64,000 nucleotides of DNA, taken from NCBI GenBank assembly GCA_021108075.1, contig JAIORP010000171.1, positions 68,041-132,040 of the forward strand, read 5' to 3'. The translations under genes were made by a program, and so were the position numbers. Below are positions 3,905-63,362 of this stretch, in pieces; the stretch's first letter is position 1, and every line of letters begins with the position of its first letter. Source of the stretch: Candidatus Omnitrophota bacterium. GTDB taxonomy: Bacteria; Omnitrophota; Gorgyraeia; Zapsychrales; Zapsychraceae. The notes under the pieces were generated by a model. That model searched no databases. It was not told the origin of the DNA and was given only the letters and a program-made list of their open reading frames with translations.

Positions 3905-4006
3905 TACCAATTCCATTAAATAATGACCAACTCCAATTCTGCTTTTCTCGACGATTTAGCGAGAATATCAGAATTAAGATAGAACAATTTATTAATGAAT
4001 TTGGTA
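3905..4006 (-). mobile_element. MITE-like element, subtype C (102 bp), in the proA-proB spacer
   Basis: TACCAATTCCATTAAATAATGACCAACTCCAATTCTGCTTTTCTCGACGATTTAGCGAGAATATCAGAATTAAGATAGAACAATTTATTAATGAATTTGGTA flanked by TAA/TAA. Confidence 0.8.
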
Positions 4007-4055
4007 TAAGAATAAAAATCCGGTTCTTTTTATTAAAATAAAGACTCACAACACC

Positions 4056-5144
4056 TTATCGTTGAGCTAAAACCAAGTTATCGCGATGGATCGCTTCCAG
4101 CTTGCCGCGTTTGTCTTTCATTTGATATAAATCGGCAATAGAATAATTCACAATACCCCGGGCAATCTCATGTTTCACCTGATCACAAACAACCACCACA
4201 TCTCCCTGCTTAAAATGTCCTTTCCAACTCACAACACCCGGCAAGAGAAGGCTGCGCCGACCGGTCAATAGCGCCGCCTGGGCCCCTTGATCAATAATGA
4301 TAAAGCCCTTTGGTTTAACCCCGAACGAGATCCAATGTTTGCGCGCCAAAAGCTTTTCCTTCTTCTCACTAAAAAATGTTCCGATCCGTTCACCCCCCAA
4401 TACCCGGGACAGAACATCTTCTGTCTCGCCATTGGCGATGATGCAGGGAATGTTCGCGTGAGTCGCTATTTTAATCGCCTCAAGCTTGGCAATCATCCCG
4501 CCTTTTGCAATGTGTTTCTTCTTCGTTCCGGAAGCAATGCTCTCAATCTCGTCTGTGATCTCTTTAATCTCTTTAAAAAAATACCTGGTTCCGTCCTTGA
4601 TATCATACAAACCCTCGACGTCAGACAGAAGCAGCAACAAATCAGCCCCGATCAGACCCGCAACCAGGGCGGACAACCTGTCATTATCGCCGAACTTAAT
4701 TTCTTCGGTTGAGATGGTATCGTTCTCATTTACAATCGGAACAATCTTGTTCGAGAAGCAGGCATTTAAAGTGTCACGCGCATTGTTATACCGAGTACGA
4801 TTGTCAAAATCATCCCACGTTAACAATATCTGAGCGCAACAACTCCCATGTTTCTTAAAAAAATTAAGATACTTATTCATTAAAATGGTTTGACCCGTCG
4901 CGGCCAAGGCTTGCAATGTGGCCAAGTTCGCATTGCGGGTCATGTGATTCATCGCCCCCATTCCAAACACAATCGCTCCGGAACTAACCAATACCACATC
5001 GATATTCTTTTGCCTGGCCTGACAAATCTGTTCGACCAAAGACCGCAGGCGCGCCACACGCGGTTTCATCCTGTACGTGGCGATGACACTTGAGCCGACT
5101 TTGATAACAACCCGTTTTATTGGTCGCGGGAACTTTCTTGGCAT
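4056..5144 (-). CDS. proB: glutamate 5-kinase with C-terminal PUA domain
   Basis: Amino-acid kinase fold (VIKVGSS..., GGMxxK) plus a PUA-like C-terminus. The 5' end overlaps obg by 28 nt as annotated; the true start may be an internal Met. Confidence 0.8.
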   Translation of the reverse strand: MPRKFPRPIKRVVIKVGSSVIATYRMKPRVARLRSLVEQICQARQKNIDVVLVSSGAIVFGMGAMNHMTRNANLATLQALAATGQTILMNKYLNFFKKHGSCCAQILLTWDDFDNRTRYNNARDTLNACFSNKIVPIVNENDTISTEEIKFGDNDRLSALVAGLIGADLLLLLSDVEGLYDIKDGTRYFFKEIKEITDEIESIASGTKKKHIAKGGMIAKLEAIKIATHANIPCIIANGETEDVLSRVLGGERIGTFFSEKKEKLLARKHWISFGVKPKGFIIIDQGAQAALLTGRRSLLLPGVVSWKGHFKQGDVVVVCDQVKHEIARGIVNYSIADLYQMKDKRGKLEAIHRDNLVLAQR

Positions 5145-6094
5145 AATATTGCTCGCAGTTTCTCAACTAATTCATCTAATCCAATCTTATCCTTCGCTGA
5201 TATCTCAATGATATCCTGCTTATATTTCGCATGAAATCGCTGAATATGTTCCTTTGCTTCAGGCAGATCAACTTTGTTGGCCACGACCAGTTTATGCTTT
5301 GCATTGAGAATATCACCATATTCATTAATCTCATGATTAATTTTCTGGTAATCTTGCAAGGGATCGCGCCCTTCTGATCCAGCGATATCAACCATATGGA
5401 CCAGAATCTTGGTTCTCTCCGCGTGTTTTAAGAAACGATCACCCAAACCTTTGCCTTTATGCGCACCTTCAATGATACCGGGAAGGTCTGCGATAATAAA
5501 ACTGTTTTCCTCATCAGGAACAAATCCTAAGACAGGCTGTTTGGTTGTAAAATGATATTGAGCGATTTTCGATTTAACTTTAGAAATTTGAGAGATTAAA
5601 GTTGATTTGCCTGCATTAGGAAAGCCGATAATACCGACATCAGCGATGAGTTTTAATTCTAAACCAATCGTCCTTTCTTCACCTGGCCTTGGTGGCTTTG
5701 ACCCTTGTTTATGAGCATTGCCCCAACCACCCCGGCCCCCTTCAGCGACGATGATGGATTGTTGATCGTCCGTTAGATCTTTTATCAATAACTTTGTTTC
5801 ATAATCCCGAACGATCGTGCCGCGAGGAACACGCAAGACACTGTCTTTTCCCGTACGGCCTGTTTTGCCCTTGCTGCTCCCATGACCGCCGTTAGCGGCT
5901 TTATAGTGTTGTTTATAGCGGAAATCCAATAGTGTTTTGATTCGCCCATCGGCGATGATGACGATTTCACCGCCATTCCCACCATCTCCACCGTCCGGGC
6001 GGGCATGACGCATGTGCTTATCACGATAAAAGCTATCGCAACCTTTTCCTCCTGCACCAGCTTTAACAAAAATTCTAGCCTCATCAACGAACAT
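5117..6094 (-). CDS. obg: GTPase Obg/CgtA
   Basis: N-terminal Obg fold (MFVDEARIFVKAGAGGKGCDSFYRDKHMRHARPDGGDGGNGG), G1 motif GFPNAGKST and G3 DLPG. Confidence 0.9.
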   Translation of the reverse strand: MFVDEARIFVKAGAGGKGCDSFYRDKHMRHARPDGGDGGNGGEIVIIADGRIKTLLDFRYKQHYKAANGGHGSSKGKTGRTGKDSVLRVPRGTIVRDYETKLLIKDLTDDQQSIIVAEGGRGGWGNAHKQGSKPPRPGEERTIGLELKLIADVGIIGFPNAGKSTLISQISKVKSKIAQYHFTTKQPVLGFVPDEENSFIIADLPGIIEGAHKGKGLGDRFLKHAERTKILVHMVDIAGSEGRDPLQDYQKINHEINEYGDILNAKHKLVVANKVDLPEAKEHIQRFHAKYKQDIIEISAKDKIGLDELVEKLRAILCQESSRDQ

Positions 6095-6108
6095 AGACGG
6101 TGCGCTAC

Positions 6109-6420
6109 TTAAGCGGCAATTTTTTTAATGGTTAACGATGTTAATTTCTGACGGTGGCCATTCTTAACAGCCGAATCTTTACGGCGACGGTATTTAAACG
6201 CGATAACTTTATCATCCAATATCTGCTTATTGACATCCGCCTCAACTTTAGCCCCGTCAACATAAGGTTGTCCAATCCGAACATCCCCATCTTTTTCCAG
6301 CAACAAAACTTTCTCAACGGTCAATGAGTCCCCTGCTTCTTTTTCTAAACGATCAACAAGAATCACATCGCCCTCTGACACTTTATACTGCATTGCCCCT
6401 ACTTCAATAATCGCATACAC
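6109..6420 (-). CDS. rplU: 50S ribosomal protein L21
   Basis: MYAIIEVGAMQYKVSEGD... is a bL21 N-terminus. It has a GTG start preceded by a GAGGAGG Shine-Dalgarno. Confidence 0.85.
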   Translation of the reverse strand: MYAIIEVGAMQYKVSEGDVILVDRLEKEAGDSLTVEKVLLLEKDGDVRIGQPYVDGAKVEADVNKQILDDKVIAFKYRRRKDSAVKNGHRQKLTSLTIKKIAA

Positions 6421-6579
6421 AATAACTCCTCCTCAGCTTATATTCGAAATGTGCGTTTCAAATTTTGACAATATTTACACAAGCCCAACCAGGTCAAATC
6501 CCTGGACCCAAATGATAAAATGTTGGGAAGCATTTATTTTAGTGGTATTTTTATTTTTTTCAACAAAAAAAAATGGAGG

Positions 6580-7896
6580 CTAAACGATCTTGACTTTTCC
6601 ACGGCCATCACAAAAAGGGCACTTTCCAAATGAAATGGACTCAATCGTCTTTCCGGTCCTGGCCCTGGTCATCTCAACCAGGCCCAGAGGCGAAATGCGG
6701 TTCACTTCTGTTTTGGCCCGGTCTTTTGTCAGCGCGCGTTTTAATGCGTCTAGAACCCTGCGTTTATGATCCTCCCTGGTCATATCGATGAAATCAATGA
6801 CAATAATACCACCTAAATCCCTTAGGCGCAACTGTCTGGCAATTTCAGGGACAACTTCCATGTTAACCATAAAAGCAGCTTCTCCAGGAGAGGCCTTTGT
6901 CTTAAACTTCCCGCTATTGACATCAACAACAATCAAACCCTCGGTTTGCTCAATAACGATGTACGCGCCAGATCTCACGGGAACGTTTATATCATATATT
7001 TTATTAAGTTCGTTAGAAACATTCTTTGCGTCAAAAAGGGATTGGGAGCCCTTATAATGATGCAATTTGTTTAGCATTTGCTTTCCAATTAATGTTTGAA
7101 TAAATTTCTTTATCTTATTGTATTCGGTTTCATCGTCGATGATCAGCTTGCTGATGCGGTCGGTTAAATTGTCACGAACAATTTTCCACATCAACTCGCC
7201 TTCTTCATAAATCAAAGCCGGCGCCTTTTCCCGTTCCGTTTTCTTACTAATCTTCAGCCACATGTTGTAAAGGAACTTCGCATCCCGAACAATTTCACGC
7301 CTTCCTTGCTTAAGAGCTGCAGTGCGAACGATCAAACCGCCACTCTTCGCAAAAGAAAAATCTTTTATCACATCACGCAATCTTTGCCTTTCGTCCGAAG
7401 GCTCAATTTTTTTTGATATGCCCGTGTGCTTATCAAACGGCATATAAACGACAAACCGGCCAGGCAAAGAAACATGAGTTGTGAGTCTCGCACCCTTTTC
7501 TCCGAAAGGATCCTTGACCACTTGGACAAGAATTTCTTGCCCCACATTCAAATGATGCTCATTTGAATGATTTGACCTTGTTTTTGTTTCCTTTACCGTT
7601 TTCTTTTTTTTCTTCTTTAATATTTTATCAATCAGTTTACTCCGGCCATTGATCTCTTCTTCTATTAATGGGCTCACGGCATCTGTTAAATAAAGAAACC
7701 CATTACGTTCCTGGCCAATATTGACAAAAGCTGCGTTAATAGAAGGAAGGATCGATTCGACCCTTCCTTTATATATATTCCCTAATAATGATTGATACCG
7801 ATCTACTTCTATAAAAAAATCATCTACTCGCCCATTATCAATAATGGCGACCTGGCGTTCACTCTTCTGAACGCGAATGAGTATTTCCTTTGGCAC
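6580..7896 (-). CDS. rng: ribonuclease E/G family (RNase G-like)
   Basis: S1 domain N-terminus, DNase-I-like catalytic core, and a C-terminal CPFCDGRG zinc-link motif. Confidence 0.75.
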   Translation of the reverse strand: MPKEILIRVQKSERQVAIIDNGRVDDFFIEVDRYQSLLGNIYKGRVESILPSINAAFVNIGQERNGFLYLTDAVSPLIEEEINGRSKLIDKILKKKKKKTVKETKTRSNHSNEHHLNVGQEILVQVVKDPFGEKGARLTTHVSLPGRFVVYMPFDKHTGISKKIEPSDERQRLRDVIKDFSFAKSGGLIVRTAALKQGRREIVRDAKFLYNMWLKISKKTEREKAPALIYEEGELMWKIVRDNLTDRISKLIIDDETEYNKIKKFIQTLIGKQMLNKLHHYKGSQSLFDAKNVSNELNKIYDINVPVRSGAYIVIEQTEGLIVVDVNSGKFKTKASPGEAAFMVNMEVVPEIARQLRLRDLGGIIVIDFIDMTREDHKRRVLDALKRALTKDRAKTEVNRISPLGLVEMTRARTGKTIESISFGKCPFCDGRGKVKIV

Positions 7897-7948
7897 TATC
7901 CACCTACTACTTTCTTCTATATAAATTGCATCATAAATGCGAAACGAA

Positions 7949-9313
7949 TTATTCTTCGTCTAACTGCGCTGTAACGATATGCGGAGTCAGAAAAATAATA
8001 ATATCTGTTTTCGCAATTGTTTTTTCTTTCTTTCTGAAAAGATATCCAAAAACCGGAATATCCCCGACAAGCGGTGTCCTCTTGATAATGTCTGTTGTTT
8101 TATCGCGAATAAGTCCAGCGATCACCAACGTTTCCGCATCTTTAACCATAACGGTGGTGCGGGCTTCTTCCTTATTAATCAACGGAAGATTAATATTATC
8201 AAAAGGAACCGTTCCCGTCATTTCTGAAACGGTCGGAATGATCTCCATCGTGACAAAACCCGCATTGTTCACGTGCGGCGTCACCTCAAACTGAATTCCG
8301 ATAGTCTTCCAGGAGAATCCGTTAACCTGCAATTGCGCCTGCTCTTCATTGTAGGAATATTGAGGGATAGGATAATCTGTTCCCACTTCAATATGCGCCG
8401 TTTTGTTATCCATGGTTACAATTCTTGGAGCAGACAAAATGTTTGTATCTGTGCGCGCTTTCAACGCCTCAAATACAGCCTGCAATTGAGTTAAATTCAA
8501 GGTCCCGTACGTGAAGTTCAAGTTCGCCTGCGACGTGCTCGGAAGAGTCGAATCCGGCCCGGGAAAGTTGTCCGACATGAAACGATCGTCTGCGTTACTC
8601 GAGAACGGCCATGTTGTTGGCCGTTTAGATCCTTGGAATGTTGCTTGCGTCAACCAATCAATCCCTAATTTGTCTGAATCATTTAACGTTGTTTCGACAA
8701 TTTTTGCCTCAATCAGGACCTGCGGAGTGGTTTGGTCTAACTGTTTAATCACGTTTGCCATCAGGTCAATATTACTGGGAACATCGGTCACGATCATCAT
8801 GTTCGTACGCTCATCGATATTGACACTCCCTCTGTCTGATTTCATTTGCTCAACGGATTCGACAATTTCCGCGGCTTTACCAAAATTCAGTGAAAACGTT
8901 TCAGTCACCAAAGGTTCCTGCTCCGCGAGTAAAACAGCATCTTCCCGACTCTTCTTTAACTGATCAACTGTCGTGACAAGAATGATATTACCCTTTTTTT
9001 CATAAGCATAACCGTATGTCTTAACAATGACATCCAACGCACGTTGCCAATGAACTTCCCGCAATTGAATTGTGACTAAACCTGTCACTTCCGGACTGGC
9101 GACGATGTTTACATCACTTTTGTATGCGAGAATTTTAAAAACATTGCGAATATCAGCATCCTTCAAATCTAAACTGACATTTCCTTCCTGATTCATTGTT
9201 ACCATTTCATTCTCAGGAGTTTCTTCTTGATTCACTTGTGCATAGGTCGTGGACGTTATCGGTGCGAAAAATAGAACCCAAAGACTGAGAAGAACTAGGG
9301 CCTTCTTTAACAT
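7949..9313 (-). CDS. pilQ: type IV pilus secretin PilQ (short form, no AMIN domains)
   Basis: Signal peptide, N0/N1-like region and secretin C-domain ending ...IIIFLTPHIVT. It follows pilMNOP. Confidence 0.8.
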   Translation of the reverse strand: MLKKALVLLSLWVLFFAPITSTTYAQVNQEETPENEMVTMNQEGNVSLDLKDADIRNVFKILAYKSDVNIVASPEVTGLVTIQLREVHWQRALDVIVKTYGYAYEKKGNIILVTTVDQLKKSREDAVLLAEQEPLVTETFSLNFGKAAEIVESVEQMKSDRGSVNIDERTNMMIVTDVPSNIDLMANVIKQLDQTTPQVLIEAKIVETTLNDSDKLGIDWLTQATFQGSKRPTTWPFSSNADDRFMSDNFPGPDSTLPSTSQANLNFTYGTLNLTQLQAVFEALKARTDTNILSAPRIVTMDNKTAHIEVGTDYPIPQYSYNEEQAQLQVNGFSWKTIGIQFEVTPHVNNAGFVTMEIIPTVSEMTGTVPFDNINLPLINKEEARTTVMVKDAETLVIAGLIRDKTTDIIKRTPLVGDIPVFGYLFRKKEKTIAKTDIIIFLTPHIVTAQLDEE

Positions 9314-9314
9314 G

Positions 9315-11977: not shown

Positions 11978-12039
11978 AATAATCGATATTTATCCTTTGT
12001 ATTTCATAAATATAAATACTATGAAGTATTTACAAAAAT

Positions 12040-14268: not shown

Positions 14269-14271
14269 CCC

Positions 14272-15527: not shown

Positions 15528-15935
15528 TTAGGGCGCTGCTGCAGCCGTAAGAATACTGCCTGTGGTCATCGTAAATATACGGGTACCTGTTTGACCAGAT
15601 GTTAATGGAGTAGCGACTAAAGTATAACCACCTGCAGCCCAAGTACAAGTATAACCGTAACCGGCTGTACCTAATGTGCAATAGTCTGCGTTGATATACG
15701 GTGGTGTTGCGCCAGTAAGATTGGCTACGGCTGCCGGGTAGTTTCCATTATTAGCCGTGGCAAATGTTTCTGCTGATGTTGATAGTGTCCGCAATGTACT
15801 TTGAGCTAAAGCCTCATTTGAGGATACTTTAGCCCTGAGTAAATTAGGGATGGCGATCGCCGCTAATAGAGCGATAATCGCGACAACGATCATAATTTCA
15901 ACTAGAGTAAAACCTCTTTGATCTCTTCTTTTCAT
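15528..15935 (-). CDS. pilA: major type IVa pilin
   Basis: MKRRDQRG|FTLVEIMIVVAIIALLAAIAIPNL is a canonical T4a prepilin leader with Phe+1 and Glu+5. The C-terminal CTLGTAGYGYTC disulfide D-region fits, and an AGGAGG Shine-Dalgarno lies upstream. Confidence 0.85.
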   Translation of the reverse strand: MKRRDQRGFTLVEIMIVVAIIALLAAIAIPNLLRAKVSSNEALAQSTLRTLSTSAETFATANNGNYPAAVANLTGATPPYINADYCTLGTAGYGYTCTWAAGGYTLVATPLTSGQTGTRIFTMTTGSILTAAAAP

Positions 15936-16658
15936 TTCTGCCTCCTGTTTTGAGCCACCTTCTACTTGATCAATTCCAGGAATTAAAATGAAATAATAAT
16001 GACATTGCTTTAGCGGAATTTTTCAAGCCATTGGCTCATGGTTTTCATACTGCCATGTACTCTGCCTGTGCTTCAAAACATTACTAGAATTCTATTATCG
16101 ACCCCCTTTCCGTGTCAAATCATATATATTATTTTTAAGAACAACTGTTCGATCTATTTTCTGCAACTTCAGATTGAATGGCAGGGCGGGATAGCACGCA
16201 CACCACCAGAATCGTCGGCATCTCCCTATCAAATTGTCAAAAAATCTATTTTTCACGATCATTTTCAATCTCCTAACACCCAAAAAAAAACCTACTCCTT
16301 CAATAAGGAATAGGTTTAAAATCACAAAAATACACTAAATTTTCGTTAGCGGCAACTGGCTACCCTTTTCAGGGCCCTGTAGTTTTGTGTCCCATCCTTA
16401 CGGAAGGTTTACCTTTATCACCAGACGCTATTGCGTCAATTGAAGTATAACATGCTAAAGTTCGCGATGTCAACGTCACCAGGAAAAAAATTCCACTTTT
16501 TCGCCCAATCAACGTATTCTTTTATTGCCCCCTATACTATAAAAGCAGATCATAATAAATATTTCCCTTTTCTTTCCATGTTTTATGTGGCATAACTGTA
16601 AATAAACATGGCCTCCGTCATCCATCTTGTTCAACTTTAAAGGAGTATATATAATAAT

Positions 16659-26919: not shown

Positions 26920-26999
26920 TACCAAATCCATTAATAAATTGCTCTATCTTAATTCTGAAAAGCAGAATTAATTTTTGTCATTATTTGATGGAATTGGTA
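26920..26999 (+). mobile_element. MITE-like element, subtype A (80 bp), in the mrdA-rodA spacer
   Basis: TACCAAATCCATTAATAAAT...ATTATTTGATGGAATTGGTA flanked by TTA/TTA direct repeats. It ends 7 bp upstream of the rodA start codon. Confidence 0.8.
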
Positions 27000-40347: not shown

Positions 40348-40427
40348 TACCAAATCCATTAATAAATTGTTCTATCTTAATTCTGAAAAGCAAAATTGGT
40401 TTTGGTCATTATTTAATAAAATTGGTA
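40348..40427 (+). mobile_element. MITE-like element, subtype A (80 bp)
   Basis: TACCAAATCCATTAATAAATTGTTCTATCTTAATTCTGAAAAGCAAAATTGG...AATAAAATTGGTA flanked by a TCA/TCA 3-bp duplication. Confidence 0.8.
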
Positions 40428-40430
40428 TCA

Positions 40431-41222
40431 TTATTGTGATAATTCTTTCGCTCTCTTACGCGCGGCTTTTATCGCGTTTTTGTAAACCAACGCCATCTGG
40501 CCGGCATGTAAAACATCCAAAGCCGCCTGGGTTGTCCCCCCTCTGGATGTGACCCGTTGGCGCAATGTTGCGGCATCCTCATGCGCTGACTCCAGGAGTT
40601 CCAGGCTTCCTTTGAGCGTCTGCCGAACCAATTGTTGGGCGACGTGTTGTTCAAATCCAAGTGATCGCGCCGCCGCCATCAAACATTCAATAAAGAAAAA
40701 AACATAGGCAGGGCCGCTGCCGGAAACCGCAGTAATACCATCCATCTCTTTTTCTTGCACAACGACGGTCGTTCCCACACAATTAAAAATCTTTTTCACC
40801 ATGCCTAAATCTTTTTTCAAGGCGTGAGAACCCGCGCAAATAGCGGTGACGCCAAACTGGACCTGAGCCGGTAAATTCGGCATTGTCCGGACCACCCGGC
40901 AATGCGTGCCGATTCTTTTCGTTATATAATCTATCGTAATCCCGGCAGCAATGGACACAACCAAATGCTTTTTCGTTATAAAAGGCTGCAGGGTCGTCAA
41001 AAGCTCATCAAATATCTGAGGTTTAACAGCTAAAATAATGATATCCGACTGAGACAATAACGACTGGAGATCCAATGATTGAACCTGATATTCCCGCACC
41101 AGATTACGGCATTTCTTTTTATCTGGATCCGTTATATACACCTGATAGTCCTGGTGAATTCCAGATACAATAGCAGAACCCATATTGCCGGCCCCGACAA
41201 ATCCAACGCTTTTTTGTTTCAT
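40431..41222 (-). CDS. proC: pyrroline-5-carboxylate reductase
   Basis: N-terminal Rossmann GFVGAGNMGSAI and a ProC dimerisation C-terminus. Confidence 0.85.
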   Translation of the reverse strand: MKQKSVGFVGAGNMGSAIVSGIHQDYQVYITDPDKKKCRNLVREYQVQSLDLQSLLSQSDIIILAVKPQIFDELLTTLQPFITKKHLVVSIAAGITIDYITKRIGTHCRVVRTMPNLPAQVQFGVTAICAGSHALKKDLGMVKKIFNCVGTTVVVQEKEMDGITAVSGSGPAYVFFFIECLMAAARSLGFEQHVAQQLVRQTLKGSLELLESAHEDAATLRQRVTSRGGTTQAALDVLHAGQMALVYKNAIKAARKRAKELSQ

Positions 41223-41414: not shown

Positions 41415-41599
41415 ATACCAAATCCATTAAATAATGACCAAAGTCATTATAATATTCTCGACGCTTTAACGAAAATAACACCTTTTAAAATAGGACAATT
41501 ATACCAATTCCATTAAATAATGACCAATGCCAATTCTGCTTTTCAGAATTAAGATAAAACAATTTATTAATGGATTTGATATTATTTAACGTATTTGGT
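41415..41599 (+). mobile_element. MITE-like element, subtype B (102 bp), interrupted by a nested subtype-A copy
   Basis: B-type left end and internal ATATTCTCGACG...TTTAA...CGAGAATA palindrome; B-type right end resumes after the insert. Outer TSD is TTA/TTA. Confidence 0.75.
41501..41580 (-). mobile_element. nested MITE-like element, subtype A (80 bp), inserted into the B copy
   Basis: TACCAATTCCATTAAATAATGACCAATGCCAATTCTGCTTTTCAGAATTAAGATAAAACAATTTATTAATGGATTTGATA. Flanked by TTA/TTA where the uninterrupted B element (copy at 62426) has a single TTA. Confidence 0.75.
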
Positions 41600-41600
41600 A

Positions 41601-42689
41601 TTATTCCTGATTTGAATACATTTTCACAAATTCTTTCTCAAATGTCGGCCAATCAAAACTTTTTTCGGCTATAACAGACAATTGATCTCCCGCTTCAATC
41701 TTTTGATCGGGCAACGGTGACGTGTTGATGGTCTCTCCGCGAATATGCGCTAAGGCATTAAAAGGGATGTTCAACCGGCCAGAAATATCCAAGGCCGTTT
41801 TAACAAATTCCCCCCAGGTCCATCCGACTAGTTGAGCCGGCGATATCGTTTGAGTATTCGGCCCTTCACTGTTGGTCAAAATATGCTGAACAACTGATGA
41901 TGAATGGGCATCCTGGCATTCCTGTACAGCGGCCAGTAACTCAAGATTCTGAATGATCCCAATGGCTTTTTTGGAAAACATCCATTGATTTTTCGGTTCA
42001 ACAAGAATATAAATGACCTGTGCATCCTGACCGGCAAAGCGCAACACCAGATCAACAAGACGCGACGTCGCCAAGTCTGACTCAGGGGTACAAGCATCCG
42101 CAGGAAAAATCAAAACGCATTTATTGTCCTGCAAAGCGGCCTGTTCGTATGTGCGTTTTTCATGACTGTATCCATGAATAAAATGAATTTTATTATGTTT
42201 GGCTAATAGGGTCGGCGACAGCTCCGTCATATTGCTGTCAATAATGCAAATGCCGACATCCGGTTCCCGGGAAACGAGCTCGTGCACAAACAATTCAAAA
42301 TTTTCTCCTGGATAATTAAAAATCACGTACCCATCTTTGTAGGGATTCTTCAACATGCCCAACCTCCTTTGATCAGCAATATACTGCTTTAAATCAACAG
42401 CATGACTGATCACAACGCCCAAACAAGCCATGCCCATTATTCCGAATAACATTGTCAGGATTCTTCCAGCTGTTGTCTGTGCCGGCGCATTCCCGTATCC
42501 AATGGTTGTTTCGGTTTGCCAGACCTGCCATACCGCCTCAACCCAAGAAATATTTTCTGTCACCTTTATCCCCAGCACAAAGAGAGCTGAGATGATCAAT
42601 AGATACAAAATAAACTCAACCACGACCAAGATGGGAAGCGGCAAGTTATTTTTACTCCTAACTTTTAATAAGAGCCAGCGGGCAAACAT
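41601..42689 (-). CDS. K+ channel (two-TM pore, TTIGYGN filter) with C-terminal RCK-like domain; start trimmed
   Basis: TTIGYGN selectivity filter between two TM helices, with a ~230-aa Rossmann-like cytoplasmic domain. The ORF-track start at 42872 runs into a MITE. The internal Met MFARWLL... is preceded by AGGAGG, so the start was set to about 42689. Confidence 0.55.
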   Translation of the reverse strand: MFARWLLLKVRSKNNLPLPILVVVEFILYLLIISALFVLGIKVTENISWVEAVWQVWQTETTIGYGNAPAQTTAGRILTMLFGIMGMACLGVVISHAVDLKQYIADQRRLGMLKNPYKDGYVIFNYPGENFELFVHELVSREPDVGICIIDSNMTELSPTLLAKHNKIHFIHGYSHEKRTYEQAALQDNKCVLIFPADACTPESDLATSRLVDLVLRFAGQDAQVIYILVEPKNQWMFSKKAIGIIQNLELLAAVQECQDAHSSSVVQHILTNSEGPNTQTISPAQLVGWTWGEFVKTALDISGRLNIPFNALAHIRGETINTSPLPDQKIEAGDQLSVIAEKSFDWPTFEKEFVKMYSNQE

Positions 42690-42825: not shown

Positions 42826-43027
42826 TACCAATGCCATTGAATCTCCTCGGAGCAAAGCTCAGAGGCATTCACTCCATTGAATAATGACCAAAACCGATTC
42901 CGCTTTTCTCGACGCTAAGGCAAGAATATCAGAATTAAAATAGAACAATTATTTAACCCGGAAAACGCAATGGGATCTAAAACTCGTCGCAATTGCTCCG
43001 TTACTCCCGGGGTTAATGGATTTGATA
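42826..43027 (-). mobile_element. degenerate MITE-like element (subtype C backbone with two internal insertions/duplications), 202 bp
   Basis: Termini TACCAATGCCATTGAA.../...TTAATGGATTTGATA with a TTA/TTA TSD. Internal CTTTTCTCGACGCTAAGGCAAGAATATCAGAATTAAAATAGAAC is the C core. Extra ~30 bp and ~55 bp segments are present, the latter CCCGG...CCGGG-flanked. Confidence 0.6.
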
Positions 43028-52089: not shown

Positions 52090-52191
52090 TACCAAATCCA
52101 TTAATAAATTGTTCTATCTTAATTCTGATATTCTCGCTAAATCGTCGAGAAAAGCAGAATTGATTTTGGTCATTATTTAATGGAATTGGTA
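52090..52191 (+). mobile_element. MITE-like element, subtype C (102 bp)
   Basis: Near-exact reverse complement of the copy at 3905-4006, including the internal TATTCTCGCTAAATCGTCGAGAA segment. Flanks are ATA/TTA. Confidence 0.8.
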
Positions 52192-52290
52192 TTATTATAC
52201 ATGTAGCGCTATATTTCAAAATGAATATTATAATATTTTTCAATTGCCAGGAACCTCCAGGTTTAACCCGACAGTCCACAGCCAACAAGA

Positions 52291-53189: not shown

Positions 53190-53209
53190 GCGCCTCCATT
53201 CTTAAAATA

Positions 53210-55503: not shown

Positions 55504-55515
55504 ACATCCGCCAGC

Positions 55516-56442: not shown

Positions 56443-56474
56443 AAAAATGACAAATCGTAATATTGCAAGTTTTA

Positions 56475-56575
56475 TACCAAATCCATTAAATAATTGTCCT
56501 ATTTGAACACCAATATTCTCGTTTAAACGTCGAGAATATCATACTGACTTTGGCAATTATTTAATGAATTTGGTA
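56475..56575 (-). mobile_element. MITE-like element, subtype B (101 bp)
   Basis: Reverse complement of the 62426 copy, with central palindrome AATATTCTCGTTTAAACGTCGAGAATAT. TSD is TTA/TTA. Confidence 0.8.
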
Positions 56576-57430
56576 TTATAAATTGTTTATGGATCTAAAA
56601 ATGGAAGAATAATCCTGATCCTCTAATCCCATTTCTAAACTTTTTCTGATGACATTTGTTAATGCGCGCATTAATTGTGTATCAATGTTCTGCTCTTGGG
56701 CTTCTTTAATAATTAAAGACACGTCTTTTAACAGGTGTTTGGTTGGGAAATTCGGATTCGAGAAATCACGTTTGATCCATCCTTCAAATTTTTTATCATA
56801 CATCGGAGCGTACAATGAACTTTTTTTAAGAATCGTATTAAAGACCTCGACCGGAACGCCTTTTTTCTCAACCATGCCCAAGCTAAAAGAAAAAGCATAC
56901 GCATGGGCAGCAATCAGATGATTCAATGCTAACTTAATGGTTGCGGCCATACCCACTTGACCGATGTAAAAAGACGGGCCTAAAACATCCAGATAATCTT
57001 TTTGTGCCTGATACAGGCCAGAATCCCCGCCAACCATGATCAGCAGGGCGCCCTTGCTTGTTTCATTTCGGCTCCCTAATACTGGGGCTTCAAGGTATTC
57101 CCCTCCTTTAGACCTAATATATTCGTCCAGGTCAACACTTTCTTTCGAGGTAATGGTACCCATCTGAAGGATCAACTTATTCTCAAAAACCAAATCATCC
57201 TTTTTGATAAGCGCATCAATCGCGCGCTTTTCGGATAAGACCAATAAAATCCTATCTGAATGTTCCAACGCAACGCGAATATTATCCGCCACATGGATAC
57301 CCATGGCGCTTAATTTAAGCGCCTTCTCTTTCGTCCGGTTATAGACCATAAGGTCAAAACCTTGCTGTGATAAACGCCGCGCAATGGCACTGCCTAAAGT
57401 TCCTGTTCCAATAAGAGTTAATTTTTTCAT
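56576..57430 (-). CDS. NAD(P)-dependent 3-hydroxyisobutyrate/6-phosphogluconate dehydrogenase-family oxidoreductase
   Basis: N-terminal Rossmann LIGTGTLGSAIARRL and a HIBADH-family C-terminal helical domain. Confidence 0.7.
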   Translation of the reverse strand: MKKLTLIGTGTLGSAIARRLSQQGFDLMVYNRTKEKALKLSAMGIHVADNIRVALEHSDRILLVLSEKRAIDALIKKDDLVFENKLILQMGTITSKESVDLDEYIRSKGGEYLEAPVLGSRNETSKGALLIMVGGDSGLYQAQKDYLDVLGPSFYIGQVGMAATIKLALNHLIAAHAYAFSFSLGMVEKKGVPVEVFNTILKKSSLYAPMYDKKFEGWIKRDFSNPNFPTKHLLKDVSLIIKEAQEQNIDTQLMRALTNVIRKSLEMGLEDQDYSSIFRSINNL

Positions 57431-58077
57431 TTTAAATATTTTTTAATAACATCATAAATGCGTTCGGCGATCATCTCGTTCCCACGTTCATCGGGATGGA
57501 GCCAATCGACCTTATTTAACGGATGCCCCCAAATGTTTTCCATAACATCGGGGACGAGCAGGGTATTATATGCTTCTGAAAGATTATAATACCCCTCCAG
57601 ATATTTATTTCTCATTTTCCGGTTATTAAACGAAACAATGCAAACCATCGCTCCAAAATCATGAATTTTATCGATCATCTCCGAAATATGCTTATGTGTT
57701 TGATCATAGGGAACACCTTGATAAAAATCATTTGTGCCTAAAAAAATGACCACAAGTCGGGGCTCCTGGCTTAAAACATCCTGAAACAGCCTCTCGAGGG
57801 CATCAGCGCTCGTATCACCATTCACACCGGAGTTAACAACCTCAATATTTTTTCTCAACATTCCAGTCAAATAAGCGGGGTAGGTGTTTTCGCGGTTGAC
57901 GCCTATCCCCAATGTCAGGCTATCGCCAAAACAAATGATTCTTTCTCCATCAGAATCCATATTGGTAATTTTTTTTGCGCAACTGCACACGCTGACTGAT
58001 AAGACCATGAACAAAAAAATAAAAATAAAATTTTTGGTTTTCATTTCTTTCAACCTTAATACAATCAAATGTCCCAT
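57427..58077 (-). CDS. secreted SGNH/GDSL hydrolase
   Basis: Signal peptide, catalytic GDSLT block, GxND block (GTNDF) and DxxH (DERGNEMIAERIY region). Confidence 0.7.
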   Translation of the reverse strand: MGHLIVLRLKEMKTKNFIFIFLFMVLSVSVCSCAKKITNMDSDGERIICFGDSLTLGIGVNRENTYPAYLTGMLRKNIEVVNSGVNGDTSADALERLFQDVLSQEPRLVVIFLGTNDFYQGVPYDQTHKHISEMIDKIHDFGAMVCIVSFNNRKMRNKYLEGYYNLSEAYNTLLVPDVMENIWGHPLNKVDWLHPDERGNEMIAERIYDVIKKYLK

Positions 58078-58104
58078 CCCTGACCTGATGACAACACATC
58101 CATT

Positions 58105-58629
58105 CTAAACGAAGTGATGCCGGATATGATAAGCAGCAATACCGAAAGCAACCGAAACATTAAGAGAATTTTTAATCCCTTTCATATAAATATCTATCGC
58201 ATCATCAACAAAAGGCAAAAGTTCCTCACTGATACCATCGATCTCATTGCCAACGACTAAACAAACTGGTTTTCGGGGGATAAAATCATAATAATCATAA
58301 CATTGATCAGTTTGCTCTAATATAACAATCTGATAATTTTGTTGTTTTAATTCTTCCACAACAGAAAGAACATCCCGCGCGTACTCCCAGTCGACGCGGT
58401 CTTCTGCCCCAATGGCTGTTTTGCTGATCTGTGATTGAGGCGGATAACCTGTTATACCACATAACCACAATTTTCGAATGCCCACGCCATCACACGTCCG
58501 AAAGATGGACCCCACATTATGCAAACTACGGATATCGTTCAAGACAACATCAAAAGAAAGCAACGGTTCTGACTGACGAATAGATTGACGATTGACGATT
58601 TCCTCATGTGTGAACTTTTTCATAAACAA
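58105..58629 (-). CDS. SpoU/TrmH-family RNA 2'-O-methyltransferase
   Basis: SPOUT motifs NVGSIFRT, LVVGNEIDGISEE and IYMKGIKNSLNVSVAFGI. Confidence 0.75.
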   Translation of the reverse strand: MFMKKFTHEEIVNRQSIRQSEPLLSFDVVLNDIRSLHNVGSIFRTCDGVGIRKLWLCGITGYPPQSQISKTAIGAEDRVDWEYARDVLSVVEELKQQNYQIVILEQTDQCYDYYDFIPRKPVCLVVGNEIDGISEELLPFVDDAIDIYMKGIKNSLNVSVAFGIAAYHIRHHFV

Positions 58630-58632
58630 TAA

Positions 58633-59022
58633 CTAATCCGTATGACTTTGAACCTGGTTAAGAATATAACGCAGAATATCTCTTCGGCTGACCACCCCAA
58701 GAACTTTTTTGTCCTCAACAATCGGCACACGTAATATATTCTTTTGAATTAAAATATGGCTGATCTCTTTAATCGGCGTGTCCTGCGGAACGCTGATAAC
58801 ATCCCGGTTAACATAATCGCGGATCGGTGCCTTGACCTGACCGAGAAAATCATATGCGACGATAAGATCTTTCCCCGAAAGCACACCGAATATTTCATTA
58901 TTCTCATCTGTCACGATTAATCCGCTAATTTCAATCTCAACTAATAACTTAATAGCGTCTTTGATTAATATTGAAGGTAAAACGGTTAAAACTTGTGTTG
59001 TCATGATGTCTTTTGCTAGCAT
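58633..59022 (-). CDS. CBS-domain pair protein
   Basis: Two CBS repeats. Confidence 0.7.
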   Translation of the reverse strand: MLAKDIMTTQVLTVLPSILIKDAIKLLVEIEISGLIVTDENNEIFGVLSGKDLIVAYDFLGQVKAPIRDYVNRDVISVPQDTPIKEISHILIQKNILRVPIVEDKKVLGVVSRRDILRYILNQVQSHTD

Positions 59023-59168
59023 ATTCCTCCTCTTTTTAAACTATGATAATACCCAAGATATAATCTGAATTCAATAAAATAAATTCCGGACATTCTCAAA
59101 AAAAGCCGTTCCTGCTTTCGCCATGTTGCTCTGATAAATCGGGCGTTCGCGAATTAAAATCAACGAAC

Positions 59169-60029
59169 CTAGGTTAGGATCTTATGGATCTCTTCTAACA
59201 AATGGGCACAATCTCTTGTCTTGGCACAGTAAGCATCCGATCCTGCTTCCCGCGCCTTCTTTGCGTCAACAGCTTCAATCAAACCAGTAATAATAATAAC
59301 TTTCCCTTGATAATTTTCAATCTTTTTTATCTTCGAACATGTTTCAAACCCGTCAATACCTGTCAGTTGGGTATCCACTAAAACAATCTCCGGTTTTTGT
59401 TGCTCGACAAATGCAATCCCGTCTTCACCTGATGCTTCCAAAAAAACCTCAAAAAAACCCGCTTGATTTAATAAACGCCGCAACAACTTTTGGTCCTGGG
59501 GATTGTCGTCAATAACAAGAATTCTGGTGCGATGGGTAACGTCCTTAGACTCTTCACGCATTGATTTAGGCAATTTATTAACGATATGCCAATAAAAATT
59601 AAAGGTATCCACAACCTTCACAAACTCATCGTAAATAACAGGTTTGGGAATATAACTACTGGCGCCATACCCATAACTCCGCAAAACATCTTCGTCATTT
59701 TTTGAAGACGTCAGCATAACCACAGGAATTGTTTTTAAATCATTATCCGCTTTGATTCTATTTAAGACTTCAAATCCATCCATTTTAGGCATATTGATGT
59801 CCAGCAGAATAATACCCGGCCGAGGGCTCCTGCGCTTATCCTTAAAGGCACCACGGTTATACAGAAAGTCCAACGCCTCCATACCGTCAGTAACAACAAA
59901 AACATTATTCTTCAACCTTGCTTTCTCAAAGGCGCGCAATGAAATTTTAATATCAGCTTCATTATCATCAATTAATAGGATATTAATCGCGGCAACCGAT
60001 GAATCCCTCTTCATGTCCTCATCCTTCAT
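59169..60029 (-). CDS. response regulator with two tandem canonical receiver domains and no output domain
   Basis: REC1: LLIDDNE...ILLDINMPKMDG...MLTSS...IPKP. REC2: LVIDDNPQD...LVDTQLTGIDG...IIITG...CAKT. Confidence 0.7.
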   Translation of the reverse strand: MKDEDMKRDSSVAAINILLIDDNEADIKISLRAFEKARLKNNVFVVTDGMEALDFLYNRGAFKDKRRSPRPGIILLDINMPKMDGFEVLNRIKADNDLKTIPVVMLTSSKNDEDVLRSYGYGASSYIPKPVIYDEFVKVVDTFNFYWHIVNKLPKSMREESKDVTHRTRILVIDDNPQDQKLLRRLLNQAGFFEVFLEASGEDGIAFVEQQKPEIVLVDTQLTGIDGFETCSKIKKIENYQGKVIIITGLIEAVDAKKAREAGSDAYCAKTRDCAHLLEEIHKILT

Positions 60030-60169
60030 ACTTCTCTCCTATTTAAGGTTCAACATATATTTCATTCATCTCAATCATAACTTATTACATTCAAATAAAA
60101 AACAATATATTTATCAACCCACAGGTTCACTTCTTTTTATAAAAAGCGTTATCTATACCGGCGCGGGCA

Positions 60170-62086
60170 TCACCTGTCTTCTTGGTCTAAATTTTTTAAT
60201 CCCTTTGGAATGGTGAAAAAGAACGTTGTTCCTTCGCCCAAGGCTGAATCGATCCAGATTTCTCCACCATGATCATCAATAACGCGTTTCACAATACTCA
60301 AACCCGCCCCGGTCCCATCATATTCCCCTTCTTTATGCAGGCGTTTAAAAATGCCAAATACTTTATCATGAAATCGAGGATCAATCCCGATACCGTTATC
60401 TTTAACATAAAACTCATGGGCATCTTCCCTTTCGCTATATCCAATGACGATGACCGGTGATTGTTCATTATTTTTCGATGAGAATTTGATACCATTATTT
60501 ATTAGGTTTAAAAAAACTTCCCCCAATTTAATGCTGTCACACATGATGACAGGCATTATTCCCTGAACACGCAAATCGACATGATGCTCTTTGATATCAA
60601 ACTCGATTCTTTCGACAACAGAATCAATCAGCTGGCGAATATCTGTTTTTTCATAAGGGTTTCGAATACGCGAGATCCGGGACAATGTCAGCAAATCATC
60701 GATGAGCTTACTTAAACGGTCCGCGCCGTAACGAATTTCTTTCAAATAATCCTGACCCTCTTCATTTAATTGTTGTCCATAGTCCTCTTCTAAAAAACTT
60801 GCGAAAGAAGAAATCCCCCTCAATGGAGCGCGCAAATCATGACTAGCGGTATAGACAAAACTATCCAATTCGAGATTGACTTTTTCTAATTCTCTTGTTC
60901 TCTGTCGGACCTTTTCTTCCAAAGAGTCATAAGACCCTTTCAAGCGGGCCGTCATCCTATCAAAAGCTTGCGAAAGCTGACCAATCTCATCAGAACTCTG
61001 AATACCCGTCCGGTGATTCAAATCACCATGCATGATAATCTCTGTACCGCGCTGCAAGGCAATGATGGGTCGCGAAATGCGCCGGCCGATCCAAAAAGAG
61101 ATTACATAGATAATAAAAATAATCAATATGCCGACTCCTGAAAAAATATACGTCAATTCGATCAAAGGTGCCAGGGCTTCAGAGACAGACATTTCAGCAA
61201 TCAAGGCCCAGCCCATTTCGGGAATGGGCACAAATGTACCCAAAACACTATGTTGACGATAGTCATCATAGACTTGAACAAAACTTGATCTTGTCAGATC
61301 AGCAGAAAATGCTGCGATGGTTGCTTCTGTTTCAACCTTTTTCTTCAAGATCGTACTCTCATGACTGAAACGGGAATCTGAACGCATCAATAAGTCTCTA
61401 CCAACTAAATACGTGTCGCCTGTCTGCCCTAATCCGGTTAAGTCTTTCATCACGTTGTTAATTTCGAGAATACCCAGTTGCAAGGCGACAACAGCATAAA
61501 CCTGTTGTTTCTCATCCAGGACAGGAGCTCCGATAAACATCGCCGGAGACCTGCTCGGCTCATAATAGGAAAAGTCTACGGTTGTGACTTCCTCTGTATC
61601 AAGAACTTTTTGCCAAATTTGAGCTAATCCACTTTTTCTATGCGGGCCGGACCGCAAGTTTGTTCCTAAAGGCGTATCATTCGTCGCCCGATAAAGCACA
61701 TGACCATAAGGGGCACTGATAAAAAAAATATCATGATACCCGTATGTTTCTAAATAGCTCCTGAAAAAAGGATCCATTTCTTGGTATATTTCTTTATAAC
61801 GTTTTTGATTCAAATCGTAAAATCTTTCCTTCTTGTAATAAACCAAAATCTTTTGAAAAGATTGCTTAACGTCCTCTGTCTGACCCAAAATGGATAAATT
61901 CTTTTTGCGCTCAGAGATATACGACCGTATCCAACTGGCCTTATTCCGGGCAACCACGTCCAAATGATTTGAAACTTCTTCTTTAAGATTATTTGCGGAG
62001 ACAAAATATAAAACAATACCTGCAGTGACTGTCAGGAAGGAAAAACTGATTAAAGAAACAAAAAAAATCTTATTGCGTATACTCAT
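60170..62086 (-). CDS. sensor histidine kinase (periplasmic Cache-like sensor, HAMP, HisKA, HATPase_c)
   Basis: Two TM helices flanking a ~270-aa periplasmic domain, H-box YTASHDLRAPLRGI, and N/G1/G2 boxes (DNGIGI..., GTGAGLSIV). Confidence 0.8.
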   Translation of the reverse strand: MSIRNKIFFVSLISFSFLTVTAGIVLYFVSANNLKEEVSNHLDVVARNKASWIRSYISERKKNLSILGQTEDVKQSFQKILVYYKKERFYDLNQKRYKEIYQEMDPFFRSYLETYGYHDIFFISAPYGHVLYRATNDTPLGTNLRSGPHRKSGLAQIWQKVLDTEEVTTVDFSYYEPSRSPAMFIGAPVLDEKQQVYAVVALQLGILEINNVMKDLTGLGQTGDTYLVGRDLLMRSDSRFSHESTILKKKVETEATIAAFSADLTRSSFVQVYDDYRQHSVLGTFVPIPEMGWALIAEMSVSEALAPLIELTYIFSGVGILIIFIIYVISFWIGRRISRPIIALQRGTEIIMHGDLNHRTGIQSSDEIGQLSQAFDRMTARLKGSYDSLEEKVRQRTRELEKVNLELDSFVYTASHDLRAPLRGISSFASFLEEDYGQQLNEEGQDYLKEIRYGADRLSKLIDDLLTLSRISRIRNPYEKTDIRQLIDSVVERIEFDIKEHHVDLRVQGIMPVIMCDSIKLGEVFLNLINNGIKFSSKNNEQSPVIVIGYSEREDAHEFYVKDNGIGIDPRFHDKVFGIFKRLHKEGEYDGTGAGLSIVKRVIDDHGGEIWIDSALGEGTTFFFTIPKGLKNLDQEDR

Positions 62087-62425
62087 ACGATCTGCCGATT
62101 CGTTAATAATATTTTTAATTAATATTCATATTATATCGTCTATGTCTCAATTAAGATAGCCGAGGTTTCTCAACCATCACACAACCCTTGCAAACAAATA
62201 AGTTGTGTATGTTTCATCCATTACCGCCGATTTTGACACTTAAATTCATGATTTAAACAGCACAAGTAACATTTACACTATAATACTGTCTCTTTCAGCT
62301 ATATTCGACGGTGGTTAACATTTTTAATTGCGGCTGTTCCGGTTTGCGTCAACCTGGAATTGATTCGGACAACAATGATATTATATAGATAATTCAAGCT
62401 CTGTCACATGTAAATAAATAAATAA

Positions 62426-62526
62426 TACCAAATCCATTAAATAATTACCAAAATCATTATGATATTCTCGACGTTTAAACGAGAATATTGGTATTCGAAT
62501 AGGACAATTATTTAATGGATTGGGTA
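62426..62526 (+). mobile_element. MITE-like element, subtype B (101 bp)
   Basis: TACCAAATCCATTAAATAATTACCAAAATCATTATGATATTCTCGACGTTTAAACGAGAATATTGG...GGACAATTATTTAATGGATTGGGTA with a TAA/TAA TSD. Confidence 0.8.
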
Positions 62527-62666
62527 TAACAAAGGGCCTGACTTCACAATCAAAACTGAACCTTATTACGACAAACGCAATAACTGTCATGTCAATCATC
62601 AACCGCTGTCATCAGGCCAGAAAACGGTCCTTGACCAAGACATTATATTGAGCGGTGTTATAACAC

Positions 62667-62703
62667 AAAAAAAGCCCTATAACCAATGATATGGCTATAG
62701 GGC
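62667..62703 (-). terminator. rho-independent terminator after the charged-repeat protein gene
   Basis: Minus-strand RNA has an 11-bp stem GCCCUAUAGCC/GGUUAUAGGGC (one G-U), an 8-nt loop and a 7-U tract, 18 nt after the stop. Confidence 0.7.
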
Positions 62704-62720
62704 GGCTTGAGAAACGGATG

Positions 62721-63233
62721 CTAGGGGTTTCTTCGTTGCTGTTGGCGATAATGACGTCTTCGTTCCCTAAAATCTTCCCGGCGGTCCCGAATATCTTCAC
62801 GACGATCCCGAATGTCTTCGCGACGATCAGCCCGAATATTTCTTTTTAATTTCTTCATTCGTGCTCTAATTTTCCGCGCTTTACCATATTCTCCGTTTTT
62901 TATCGCTTCTCTAAAATTACGACGCATTTGACGCATCATTCTGTTCTTTATCTTATCATCACGTCTATCCCGAATATCTTCACGACGGTCCCGAATATCT
63001 TCGCGGCGGTCCCAACGGTCTTCCAGACGGTCATACTTATCTTCCCAACGATCCCGCCAGCCTCTGTGTATTCGAGGCCTGCTTTGAAACTCTGATGTGC
63101 CCGATGCCCCCTCTGTCGCGGGGGTTGCGCCCTCTTCGACACTCTCAGCAAAAACATTCGCGGCGAACAAAAGAATCATTAAAAGCAGGCACCCGACCCC
63201 ACCTCTCCGCCAAAATCTAACCATTTCACCCAT
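62721..63233 (-). CDS. secreted highly charged repeat protein (RREDIRD heptad blocks flanking a K/R-rich core)
   Basis: Signal peptide MGEMVRFWRRGGVGCLLLMILLFAANVFA. Two DRREDIRDRREDIRDRR blocks are encoded by 21-bp tandem DNA repeats (62771-62825 and 62961-63025). Confidence 0.35.
   Translation of the reverse strand: MGEMVRFWRRGGVGCLLLMILLFAANVFAESVEEGATPATEGASGTSEFQSRPRIHRGWRDRWEDKYDRLEDRWDRREDIRDRREDIRDRRDDKIKNRMMRQMRRNFREAIKNGEYGKARKIRARMKKLKRNIRADRREDIRDRREDIRDRREDFRERRRHYRQQQRRNP
62961..63025. repeat. 21-bp tandem repeat x3 inside the CDS (CG(G/A)CGGTCCCGAATATCTTC(A/G)); a second x2.5 block lies at 62771-62825
   Basis: Direct reading of the sequence; it encodes the REDIRDR heptads. 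Confidence 0.7.
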
Positions 63234-63331
63234 CTTGAACCTCCTATTATTAAGGTTTATATTGCGCTCAACTTAACGAAGATAAACCCCTTTTTCTCAA
63301 AAAAGTTCCGCGATCAGTCAATGGGATGATT

Positions 63332-63362
63332 ATACCAATTCCATATAAATAATTACCAACTC
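63332..63362 (+). repeat. truncated MITE fragment (left terminus only, ~31 bp), overlapping the secretin gene's stop codon
   Basis: TTA|TACCAATTCCATATAAATAATTACCAACTC matches the C-type left end and then diverges. The last four secretin codons (V S W stop) are encoded within it. Confidence 0.55.

Follow-up and report, generated by a model that had tools for sequence, protein, structure and literature searches.

Miniature inverted-repeat elements in an Omnitrophota metagenome contig share their termini and TNA target duplication with a clade of IS630-family insertion sequences

Results

The repeat family and its setting

The 64-kb stretch of DNA analysed here (the window) comes from a metagenome contig of 147.8 kb (ENA ERZ26872899 NODE_6), and its spacers carry a family of short repeats that we interpret as transposable elements of the miniature inverted-repeat type (MITEs) whose ends, judging from the sequences compared below, very probably serve an IS630-family transposase that an autonomous insertion sequence (IS) of 1.1 kb provides in trans. 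The ProC protein of the window is MCD4781509.1, assigned by NCBI to a metagenome-assembled genome (MAG) of 'Candidatus Omnitrophica bacterium'. The G+C content is about 41-42%, GC skew is negative throughout, and the housekeeping genes, including those for AddAB, IleRS, ProC, Lgt and LspA, lie almost all on the minus strand.

The terminus of the repeats, TACCAAWTCCATTAAATAAT, matches the window 16 times with up to 3 mismatches, against 0.07 matches expected from shuffles. A search with a profile model built from 25 aligned copies returned the copies listed by the initial annotation and nothing beyond, and bears out their occurrence in both orientations and in intergenic positions only; most of the coordinates given there were right, and three (41415-41599, 41501-41580 and 63332) were off by one (Table 1). 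The census comprises nine complete elements plus one fragment; of the nine, one lies nested within another and one has received two later insertions. They are small and have no internal open reading frame (ORF), measuring 80-102 bp apart from the nested pair (185 bp) and the composite copy (202 bp). The nine copies sum to 953 bp, 1.5% of the window. As the 17.5 kb of contig flanks (±9 kb) contain no further copy, IS or transposase gene, the density including the flanks is about one copy per 9 kb over 81.5 kb. The initial annotation, which counted roughly one copy per 6 kb, had called the family very dense; the density is high, yet within the range of Correia elements or pneumococcal repeats.

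Anatomy, subtypes and folding

Aligned, the 25 copies, which come from three genomes, form one colinear 102-nt family with the consensus TACCAATTCCATTAAATAATGACCAAAATCAATTTTGCTTTTCTCGACGnTTTAACGAGAATAGCAGCnTTAAAATAGAGCAATTATTTAATGGAATTGGTA. Terminal inverted repeats of 20-22 nt are common to all copies, and the helix that they form (helix 1) is 91% paired. Subtype A is subtype C minus 22 nt (TCGACGATTTAGCGAGAATATC), as the initial annotation had recognized, and the deletion is bounded by TC microhomology. Because subtype A is found at three different sites, it must have been amplified after the deletion, and the central hairpin that it lacks is therefore not needed for movement. Subtype B had been credited with a swapped, different core containing a perfect 30-nt palindrome, ATATTCTCGACGTTTAAACGTCGAGAATAT, a sequence that is absent even when 3 mismatches are allowed. 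Its core is ATATTCTCG-ACGTTTAAA-CGAGAATAT; this hairpin is also that of C, from which it differs at 3 of 19 nt (TCTCGACG(A/T)TT(T/A)A(G/A)CGAGA), and B and C can be aligned over their whole length; B is thus a diverged subfamily of the same element and not a case of core exchange.

The central hairpin, TCTCG-ACGnTTnnA-CGAGA, and part of its loop are nearly invariant across the three genomes and confined to these MITEs (32 of 32 occurrences), being absent from the autonomous IS. When folded as DNA, full copies give long imperfect hairpins (z-scores from -3 to -7.3); of the proposed pairs 85% form, compared with about 40% in slid controls, and the arms show a few compensatory changes. Covariation on the hairpin arms amounts to 8 pairs with double changes, a number reached by 25 of 500 shuffles, and this support is too modest for a selected RNA structure to be claimed. 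No Rfam family matches the repeats at the gathering threshold, a scan for terminator-like sites found none in any copy, and the occurrence of copies in both orientations relative to transcription argues against an orientation-dependent RNA role.

A three-base target duplication and an exactly reconstituted host

Eight of the nine complete copies are flanked by perfect 3-bp direct repeats, TTA in five, TAA in two and TCA in one, and the ninth by ATA and TTA, exactly as first reported. We pooled 45 elements from the window and related loci to examine the flanks statistically. T occupies position -3 in 42 of them, A position -1 in 42, T position +1 in all 45, and A position +3 in 44. Left and right triplets are identical in 30 of the 45, against 17.0 ± 3.0 on random re-pairing, and none of 10,000 shuffles reached 30, so the repeats are not what AT-rich DNA would provide by chance. 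TAA/TAA pairs number 16 and TTA/TTA pairs 13, with only 2 of TAA/TTA, and virtually no pooled element is flanked by a direct repeat of 2, 4 or 5 bp.

The nested pair confirms the length of the duplication at a single site: removing the inner copy (41502-41581) with one TTA restores CAATTATTTAA in the host copy, and the rejoined host (41416-41600) is 102 nt long and aligns without gaps to its sister at 62426-62526.

Abutting elements that have one TNA in common (...TTGGTA-TAA-TACCAAT...) are frequent across the loci (Table 1), which suggests either a preference for the triplet that adjoins a resident copy or local hopping of the elements.

Gain of the elements since divergence from a relative

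A syntenic relative (locus L066), whose ProC is 71% identical, keeps the gene order AddA-AddB-...-ion channel-proC-PNP-IleRS and has no element in three spacers that carry one in the window, including the proC site of copy 40348-40427; the terminus is not found anywhere in 14.4 kb of this relative at up to 4 mismatches. Motifs in the spacers are conserved on both sides, so the three empty sites are orthologous, and it follows that the window elements were gained after the two lineages split. Together with the nested insertion and its exact reconstitution, the empty orthologous sites indicate that the elements have been mobile and are not ancient fixed structures.

The opposite view, in which they are structural or regulatory repeats of the host, fixed and unable to transpose (REP-like palindromes, terminators or a small RNA), and their flanking triplets simply reflect AT-rich spacers, draws on the long hairpins of the full copies, on their well-paired arms with a few compensatory changes, on the near-invariance of the central hairpin, and on the fact that every copy is intergenic. 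We regard it as very improbable, since the variable middle base of the left and right triplets agrees far more often than in re-paired flanks, the nested copy leaves its host exactly reconstituted, the relative has empty spacers at orthologous positions, copies point both ways with respect to transcription, neither an Rfam match nor a terminator-like site was found in them, and subtype A has reached three sites without the hairpin. Repetitive extragenic palindromic sequences of the REP/REPIN type, short palindromes that make no target duplication and go with a Y1 (RAYT) transposase, were considered and rejected, as the window repeats consistently show a 3-bp duplication and have the termini of a DDE transposon; a RAYT gene did not come to light, though no search aimed at RAYT was made.

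Autonomous elements with the same termini

When 185,579 species genomes were scanned for the terminus, paired MITE-like copies came up in another Omnitrophota MAG, OFTM38 (contigs up to 242 kb), in a MAG labelled Planctomycetales, in Bdellovibrio/Bdellovibrionales MAGs (one contig of 115 kb) and in the isolate Paraglaciecola chathamensis. The Bdellovibrio/Bdellovibrionales and Paraglaciecola MITEs (81-180 bp) have only the 20-nt termini in common with the window family, their interiors being unrelated. The scan also led to transposases. On an 848-bp Psychromonas contig (L008) the terminus directly follows the C-terminus of an IS630-type transposase with a PPYSPELNPIE motif. Complete relatives of this element on plasmids carry the annotation IS630 family and were found in Aeromonas (TGA, TACCAATCAG...GATTGGTA, TGA), Vibrio (TCA on both sides) and Pseudoalteromonas (TTA, TACCATTCC..., TTA).

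Metagenomes were scanned for the MITE terminus together with a PELNPIE-coding motif at the conserved distance of 158 nt, and two of the loci returned were informative. Locus L054 contains a complete IS of 1144 bp, its 349-aa ORF intact, which is bounded by TAA, TACCAATCCCATTAAATAATTCCC...GGGAATTATTTAATGGAATTGGTA, TAA (its ends also written as TAA, TACCAATCCCATTAAATAAT...ATTATTTAATGGAATTGGTA, TAA). The IS end at L056, the best match of its kind, equals the window MITE end at 24 of 24 nt; its contig showed no similarity to any compared locus that would indicate its taxonomy. A homologue of the L054 transposase (P0128), named 'IS630 family transposase [Candidatus Omnitrophica bacterium]', belongs to a 1141-bp IS that has several different flanks (L058-L063), typically TTA, TACCAATTCCATTAAATAAT..., TTA, and two further autonomous elements (L064 and L065) have TTA duplications. 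The 20-nt MITE terminus TACCAATTCCATTAAATAAT is identical to the IS ends at L054, L056 and L058. The partner transposases carry helix-turn-helix (HTH) and DDE_3 (PF13358) domains and score 269.9, 220.8 and 216.5 bits on the NCBIfam model NF033545 (IS630, cut-off 100). Because the MITE termini are identical to those of complete IS630 elements, the partner family is IS630. Two transposase clades with the common terminus are only about 40% identical, which means that the terminus is strongly conserved. The presence of the same 20-nt terminus on long contigs of Omnitrophota and Bdellovibrio and in the Paraglaciecola isolate points to one IS630 clade spread across phyla that may have been widely exchanged or may be very conserved.

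The initial annotation had suggested looking for an autonomous partner with the same terminal repeats, and complete ones exist; it had also assigned that partner to the IS5 family or to PIF/Harbinger, and this part did not hold. Duplications of 3 bp of the form TWA are typical of IS1031-group IS5 elements and of PIF/Harbinger, and those of the window family are 3 bp long and mostly TTA or TAA. Small inverted-repeat MITEs of the IS5 (IS1031/ISL2) and PIF/Harbinger (Tourist-like) kind are similar in structure and in their TNA/TWA duplication, and differ from the window family in their termini and in their partner transposases (DDE_Tnp_1/DDE_Tnp_4-type). That a transposase of either group moves the window elements is nevertheless hardly credible, since the autonomous elements that we recovered with these ends all code for IS630-family transposases, these IS630 elements themselves generate TNA duplications including TGA and TCA, and no IS5 or Harbinger partner was seen, none of the 46 genome loci and 4 metagenome loci showing an IS5-type gene beside a terminus.

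Other searches around the termini gave little. In a tblastn search of IS630 transposases against the window, the 46 genome loci and viral loci, only L008 matched, and an all-against-all comparison of the ORFs of the 46 genome loci found no multi-copy transposase. Viral contigs gave 20 single terminus matches, none paired and none with a transposase, and these were treated as chance.

TNA duplication in the autonomous clade

Fourteen clean insertions of autonomous IS630 elements are flanked by TGA, TCA, TTA or TAA. Among them are six independent insertions of one plasmid IS, with copies at least 99.8% identical in Aeromonas, Citrobacter and Enterobacter, that have the duplications TGA, TTA, TCA, TAA, TAA and TGA, all of them perfect and in GC-rich flanks. 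Since MITEs and autonomous members are both flanked by TNA, duplicating 3 bp of the form TNA is characteristic of this IS630 clade. Neither shows the TA duplication that is canonical for IS630/Tc1-mariner; because the transposase is an IS630-family protein, the TNA duplication marks a variant IS630 clade and not exclusion from the family. A TWA duplication is therefore not the hallmark of IS5 and PIF/Harbinger that it had been taken for.

A classical IS630 element that duplicates the 2 bp TA and whose terminal repeats are longer by one base (TA + A-TACCAAT...ATTGGTA-T + TA) would agree with the tabulation of the related ISEcret5, an IS630-family element with TACCAAT-type ends (IR ATRCCAATYGC), as '2 bp (TA)' (PMC6007542), and with TA being the classical Tc1/mariner duplication (PMC7386202), but it is scarcely tenable because it requires every copy to have TAA to its left and TTA to its right, a pair counted only twice above, cannot give the TGA/TGA, TCA/TCA, TAA/TAA and TTA/TTA pairs of autonomous copies, and fails to restore the host of the nested insertion.

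We found no paper that gives a TNA or 3-bp duplication for bacterial IS630, where individual ISfinder entries may already record it, and a review of prokaryotic MITEs and a large MITE survey mention neither the IS630-TNA association nor Omnitrophota. The TNA-duplicating IS630 clade thus appears under-described. The terminus sequence itself occurred in none of the papers searched, so that calling the family undescribed, as the initial annotation did, is plausible.

Three features of the autonomous elements deserve mention in their own right. The 2.4-Mb contig of L065 (9920-12888 and around) is IS-dense, with several related IS630 copies and IS4/ISL3/IS110-type genes nearby; the left and right termini of two neighbouring copies look exchanged (TACCATTTCC and TACCAATTAC types) and appear as expected after recombination between copies. 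In the Vibrio and Pseudoalteromonas relatives (L052 813-1848 and L053 825-1845) a programmed -1 frameshift at an A-rich run (..AAAAA..) is predicted to be needed to join the HTH and DDE parts. The transposases of the Aeromonas IS and of the Omnitrophota-type clade are encoded in a single ORF.

Host-gene context and other features of the window

Stop codons TAA and TGA are among the TNA targets, and the duplication regenerates the stop. The right duplication of element 41416-41600 (41601-41603) is the TAA stop of the ion-channel gene, that of element 56475-56575 (56576-56578) is the TAA stop of the minus-strand gene 56576-57430, and copy 40348-40427 lies directly after the proC stop codon in the arrangement TAA-TGA-element-TGA (40428-40433). 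Copy 3905-4006 lies 49 bp downstream of the stop of the minus-strand gene 4056-5144. Several copies sit in spacers of less than 100 bp between co-directional genes, for example copy 26920-26999 in a 97-bp gap between two ORFs, and these would have to be co-transcribed. At five ends the GACCAA-side terminus and the duplication together give an outward-facing promoter-like match, by consensus only (sigma-70-like with an extended -10: TGGTCA or TTGGCA, 17-18 nt, TGgTAT(T/A)AT), mostly antisense to the neighbouring gene (Table 1).

Copy 42826-43027 contains two secondary insertions. The first, at 42843-42882, consists of 31 nt plus a 9-nt duplication of CCATTGAAT, and the second, at 42957-43016, of a 56-nt CCCGG...CCGGGG inverted-repeat piece plus a TTAA duplication; no other copy of either was found in the window or in any compared locus. 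Elsewhere in the window, the minus strand carries a c-di-GMP-I riboswitch aptamer at 16348-16423 (Rfam RF01051; 60.6 bits, gathering score 35), in the gap immediately upstream of the minus-strand ORF 15528-15935. The minus-strand ORF 62721-63233 (170 aa) contains six copies of a 21-nt period (TCCCGAATATCTTCACGACGG-like) at 62743-63075 and encodes a heptad-repeat protein without a Pfam match. No tRNA was found in the window.

Table 1. Copies of the MITE family in the window, promoter-like matches at their ends, and abutting elements at other loci (positions are those of the window unless a locus is named; TSD, target-site duplication).
Position	Strand	Feature	TSD or flanks	Remarks
3905-4006	+	Subtype C, full, 102 bp	TAA (3902-3904, 4007-4009)	nhmmer 81.5 bits
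26920-26999	-	Subtype A, 80 bp	TTA	
40348-40427	-	Subtype A, 80 bp	TCA	TGA on the coding strand
41416-41600	+	Subtype B, 102 bp once rejoined	TTA (outer)	Split by nested copy
41502-41581	+	Subtype A, 80 bp	TTA (41499-41501, 41582-41584)	Inside right terminal repeat of 41416-41600
42826-43027	+	Subtype C	TTA (outer)	Two secondary insertions
52090-52191	-	Subtype C, full, 102 bp	ATA/TTA	Sole imperfect duplication; 86.1 bits
56475-56575	-	Subtype B, full, 101 bp	TTA	
62426-62526	+	Subtype B, full, 101 bp	TAA	
63333-63392	+	Solo left end (TACCAATTCCATATAAATAATTACCAAC...)	TTA precedes	Truncated or decayed copy; weak profile match, E = 0.033
40403-40431		Promoter-like match		
41498-41526		Promoter-like match		
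41576-41604		Promoter-like match		
52167-52195		Promoter-like match		
56550-56579		Promoter-like match		
L007 2060-2356		Abutting elements		
L011 2546-2671		Abutting elements		
L025 1157-1363		Abutting elements		
L054 185-218		Abutting elements		
L055 343-385		Abutting elements		
L057 999-1033		Abutting elements		

Discussion

Our results place the window repeats in a known class, the IS630-derived MITEs, as a new family in a little-studied phylum. As proposed here, the 20-22-nt termini would be the binding and cleavage sites of an IS630-family transposase (Tc1/mariner-type, with HTH and DDE_3 domains) encoded by the 1.1-kb autonomous IS with the same ends, and the helper may be, or may once have been, present in this genome. 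The transposase would excise the element and insert it at a T-N-A trinucleotide, probably with a 3-nt staggered cut of the target whose repair would leave TNA on each side. Copies would then persist where an insertion can be tolerated, in the short AT-rich spacers between genes and often within or beside a TAA or TGA stop that the duplication regenerates, and might have some effect on host gene expression. Among the subfamilies, A arose from C by the 22-nt deletion and was then amplified; since the subfamilies have one set of termini, they were presumably moved by one kind of transposase, which agrees with what the initial annotation supposed.

Several observations weigh against this reading. 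No transposase gene was found in the 64-kb window, in the 17.5-kb flanks or in the 8-kb loci around the MITEs of other genomes, so the presence of a helper in this genome is something that we infer. The MITE interior has no similarity to the IS interior, and the common part is about 20-24 nt per end. The contig of the IS named after Omnitrophica is only 3.1 kb long and its binning is weak, and the 90% cluster of its transposase (P0128) has also been binned to Alphaproteobacteria and Oligoflexia, all on short contigs with unreliable binning. Flanking triplets are non-identical in 15 of the 45 pooled copies; some of these are mis-paired nested or abutting elements, and others have presumably mutated. 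Finally, empty sites were found in the relative and not within the strain: eight same-strain contigs from other samples, which encode identical proteins (L048-L050, L068, L069, L071, L072), are 99.9-100% identical to the window or break inside repeats, and no present-day insertion polymorphism was seen among them.

The nearest known elements are those of the TACCAAT...ATTGGTA-ended IS630 clade, examples of which are the 1102-bp IS on Aeromonas, Citrobacter and Enterobacter plasmids (NZ_AP026405 and others), ISEcret5, and the 349-aa clade of L054 and L058. They have the same 20-nt termini (L054, L056, L058) and the same TNA duplication as the window elements, which differ in being 80-102 bp long, in encoding nothing and in their unrelated interior, and the clade as a whole does not make the TA duplication that is canonical for IS630/Tc1/mariner. 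MITEs derived from IS630 are a well-known class, which includes RUP, mobilised in Streptococcus pneumoniae by IS630-Spn1, and the Geobacter element Chunjie. Like the window family, they are non-coding, hairpin-forming elements of about 100 bp with IS630-type ends, intergenic, multi-copy and presumed to be mobilised in trans. They differ in sequence, in host phylum and in duplicating TA rather than a 3-bp TNA, and the window family in addition carries a conserved central hairpin that is not derived from the IS. The Correia elements of Neisseria are hairpin MITEs of about 100-150 bp, present at about one per 10 kb, co-transcribed with their neighbours and bearing outward promoter-like ends; to our knowledge they have no active transposase. 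They duplicate TA and have unrelated termini. In eukaryotes, Tc4 and Tc5 of C. elegans duplicate TNA. Fot elements, which belong to the pogo superfamily, duplicate TAA (PMC7386202). Both fall within the same broad transposase group (ITm) and duplicate 3 bp, T-rich or TNA, instead of TA, but they are eukaryotic, much larger and served by other transposase clades.

It is conceivable, though we think it unlikely, that the TACCAAT-ended branch of IS630 is a distinct subgroup with a 3-nt stagger at TNA and that the hairpin of its Omnitrophota MITEs is functional cargo. If so, this would be a subgroup not yet explicitly described, integrating without the canonical 2-nt stagger at TA and with a range that takes in plasmids of clinical Aeromonas and Citrobacter as well as Omnitrophota, Bdellovibrionota and marine Gammaproteobacteria. 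The hairpin might, for example, be bound by a host factor or a transposition cofactor or act as an RNA element, and would be more than a relic of a master copy.

Whether or not the hairpin has such a role, a 3-bp TWA or TNA duplication cannot by itself identify an IS5 or Harbinger element, as it belongs here to an IS630 clade. The Omnitrophota, uncultured and poorly known, gain a defined and recently active MITE family with a consensus and a candidate helper IS, useful for annotation, for the diagnosis of assembly breaks and for strain typing. If the geometry of TNA integration is still uncharacterised, these elements would offer a simple entry to how a Tc1/mariner-type active site sets the stagger of its target cut.

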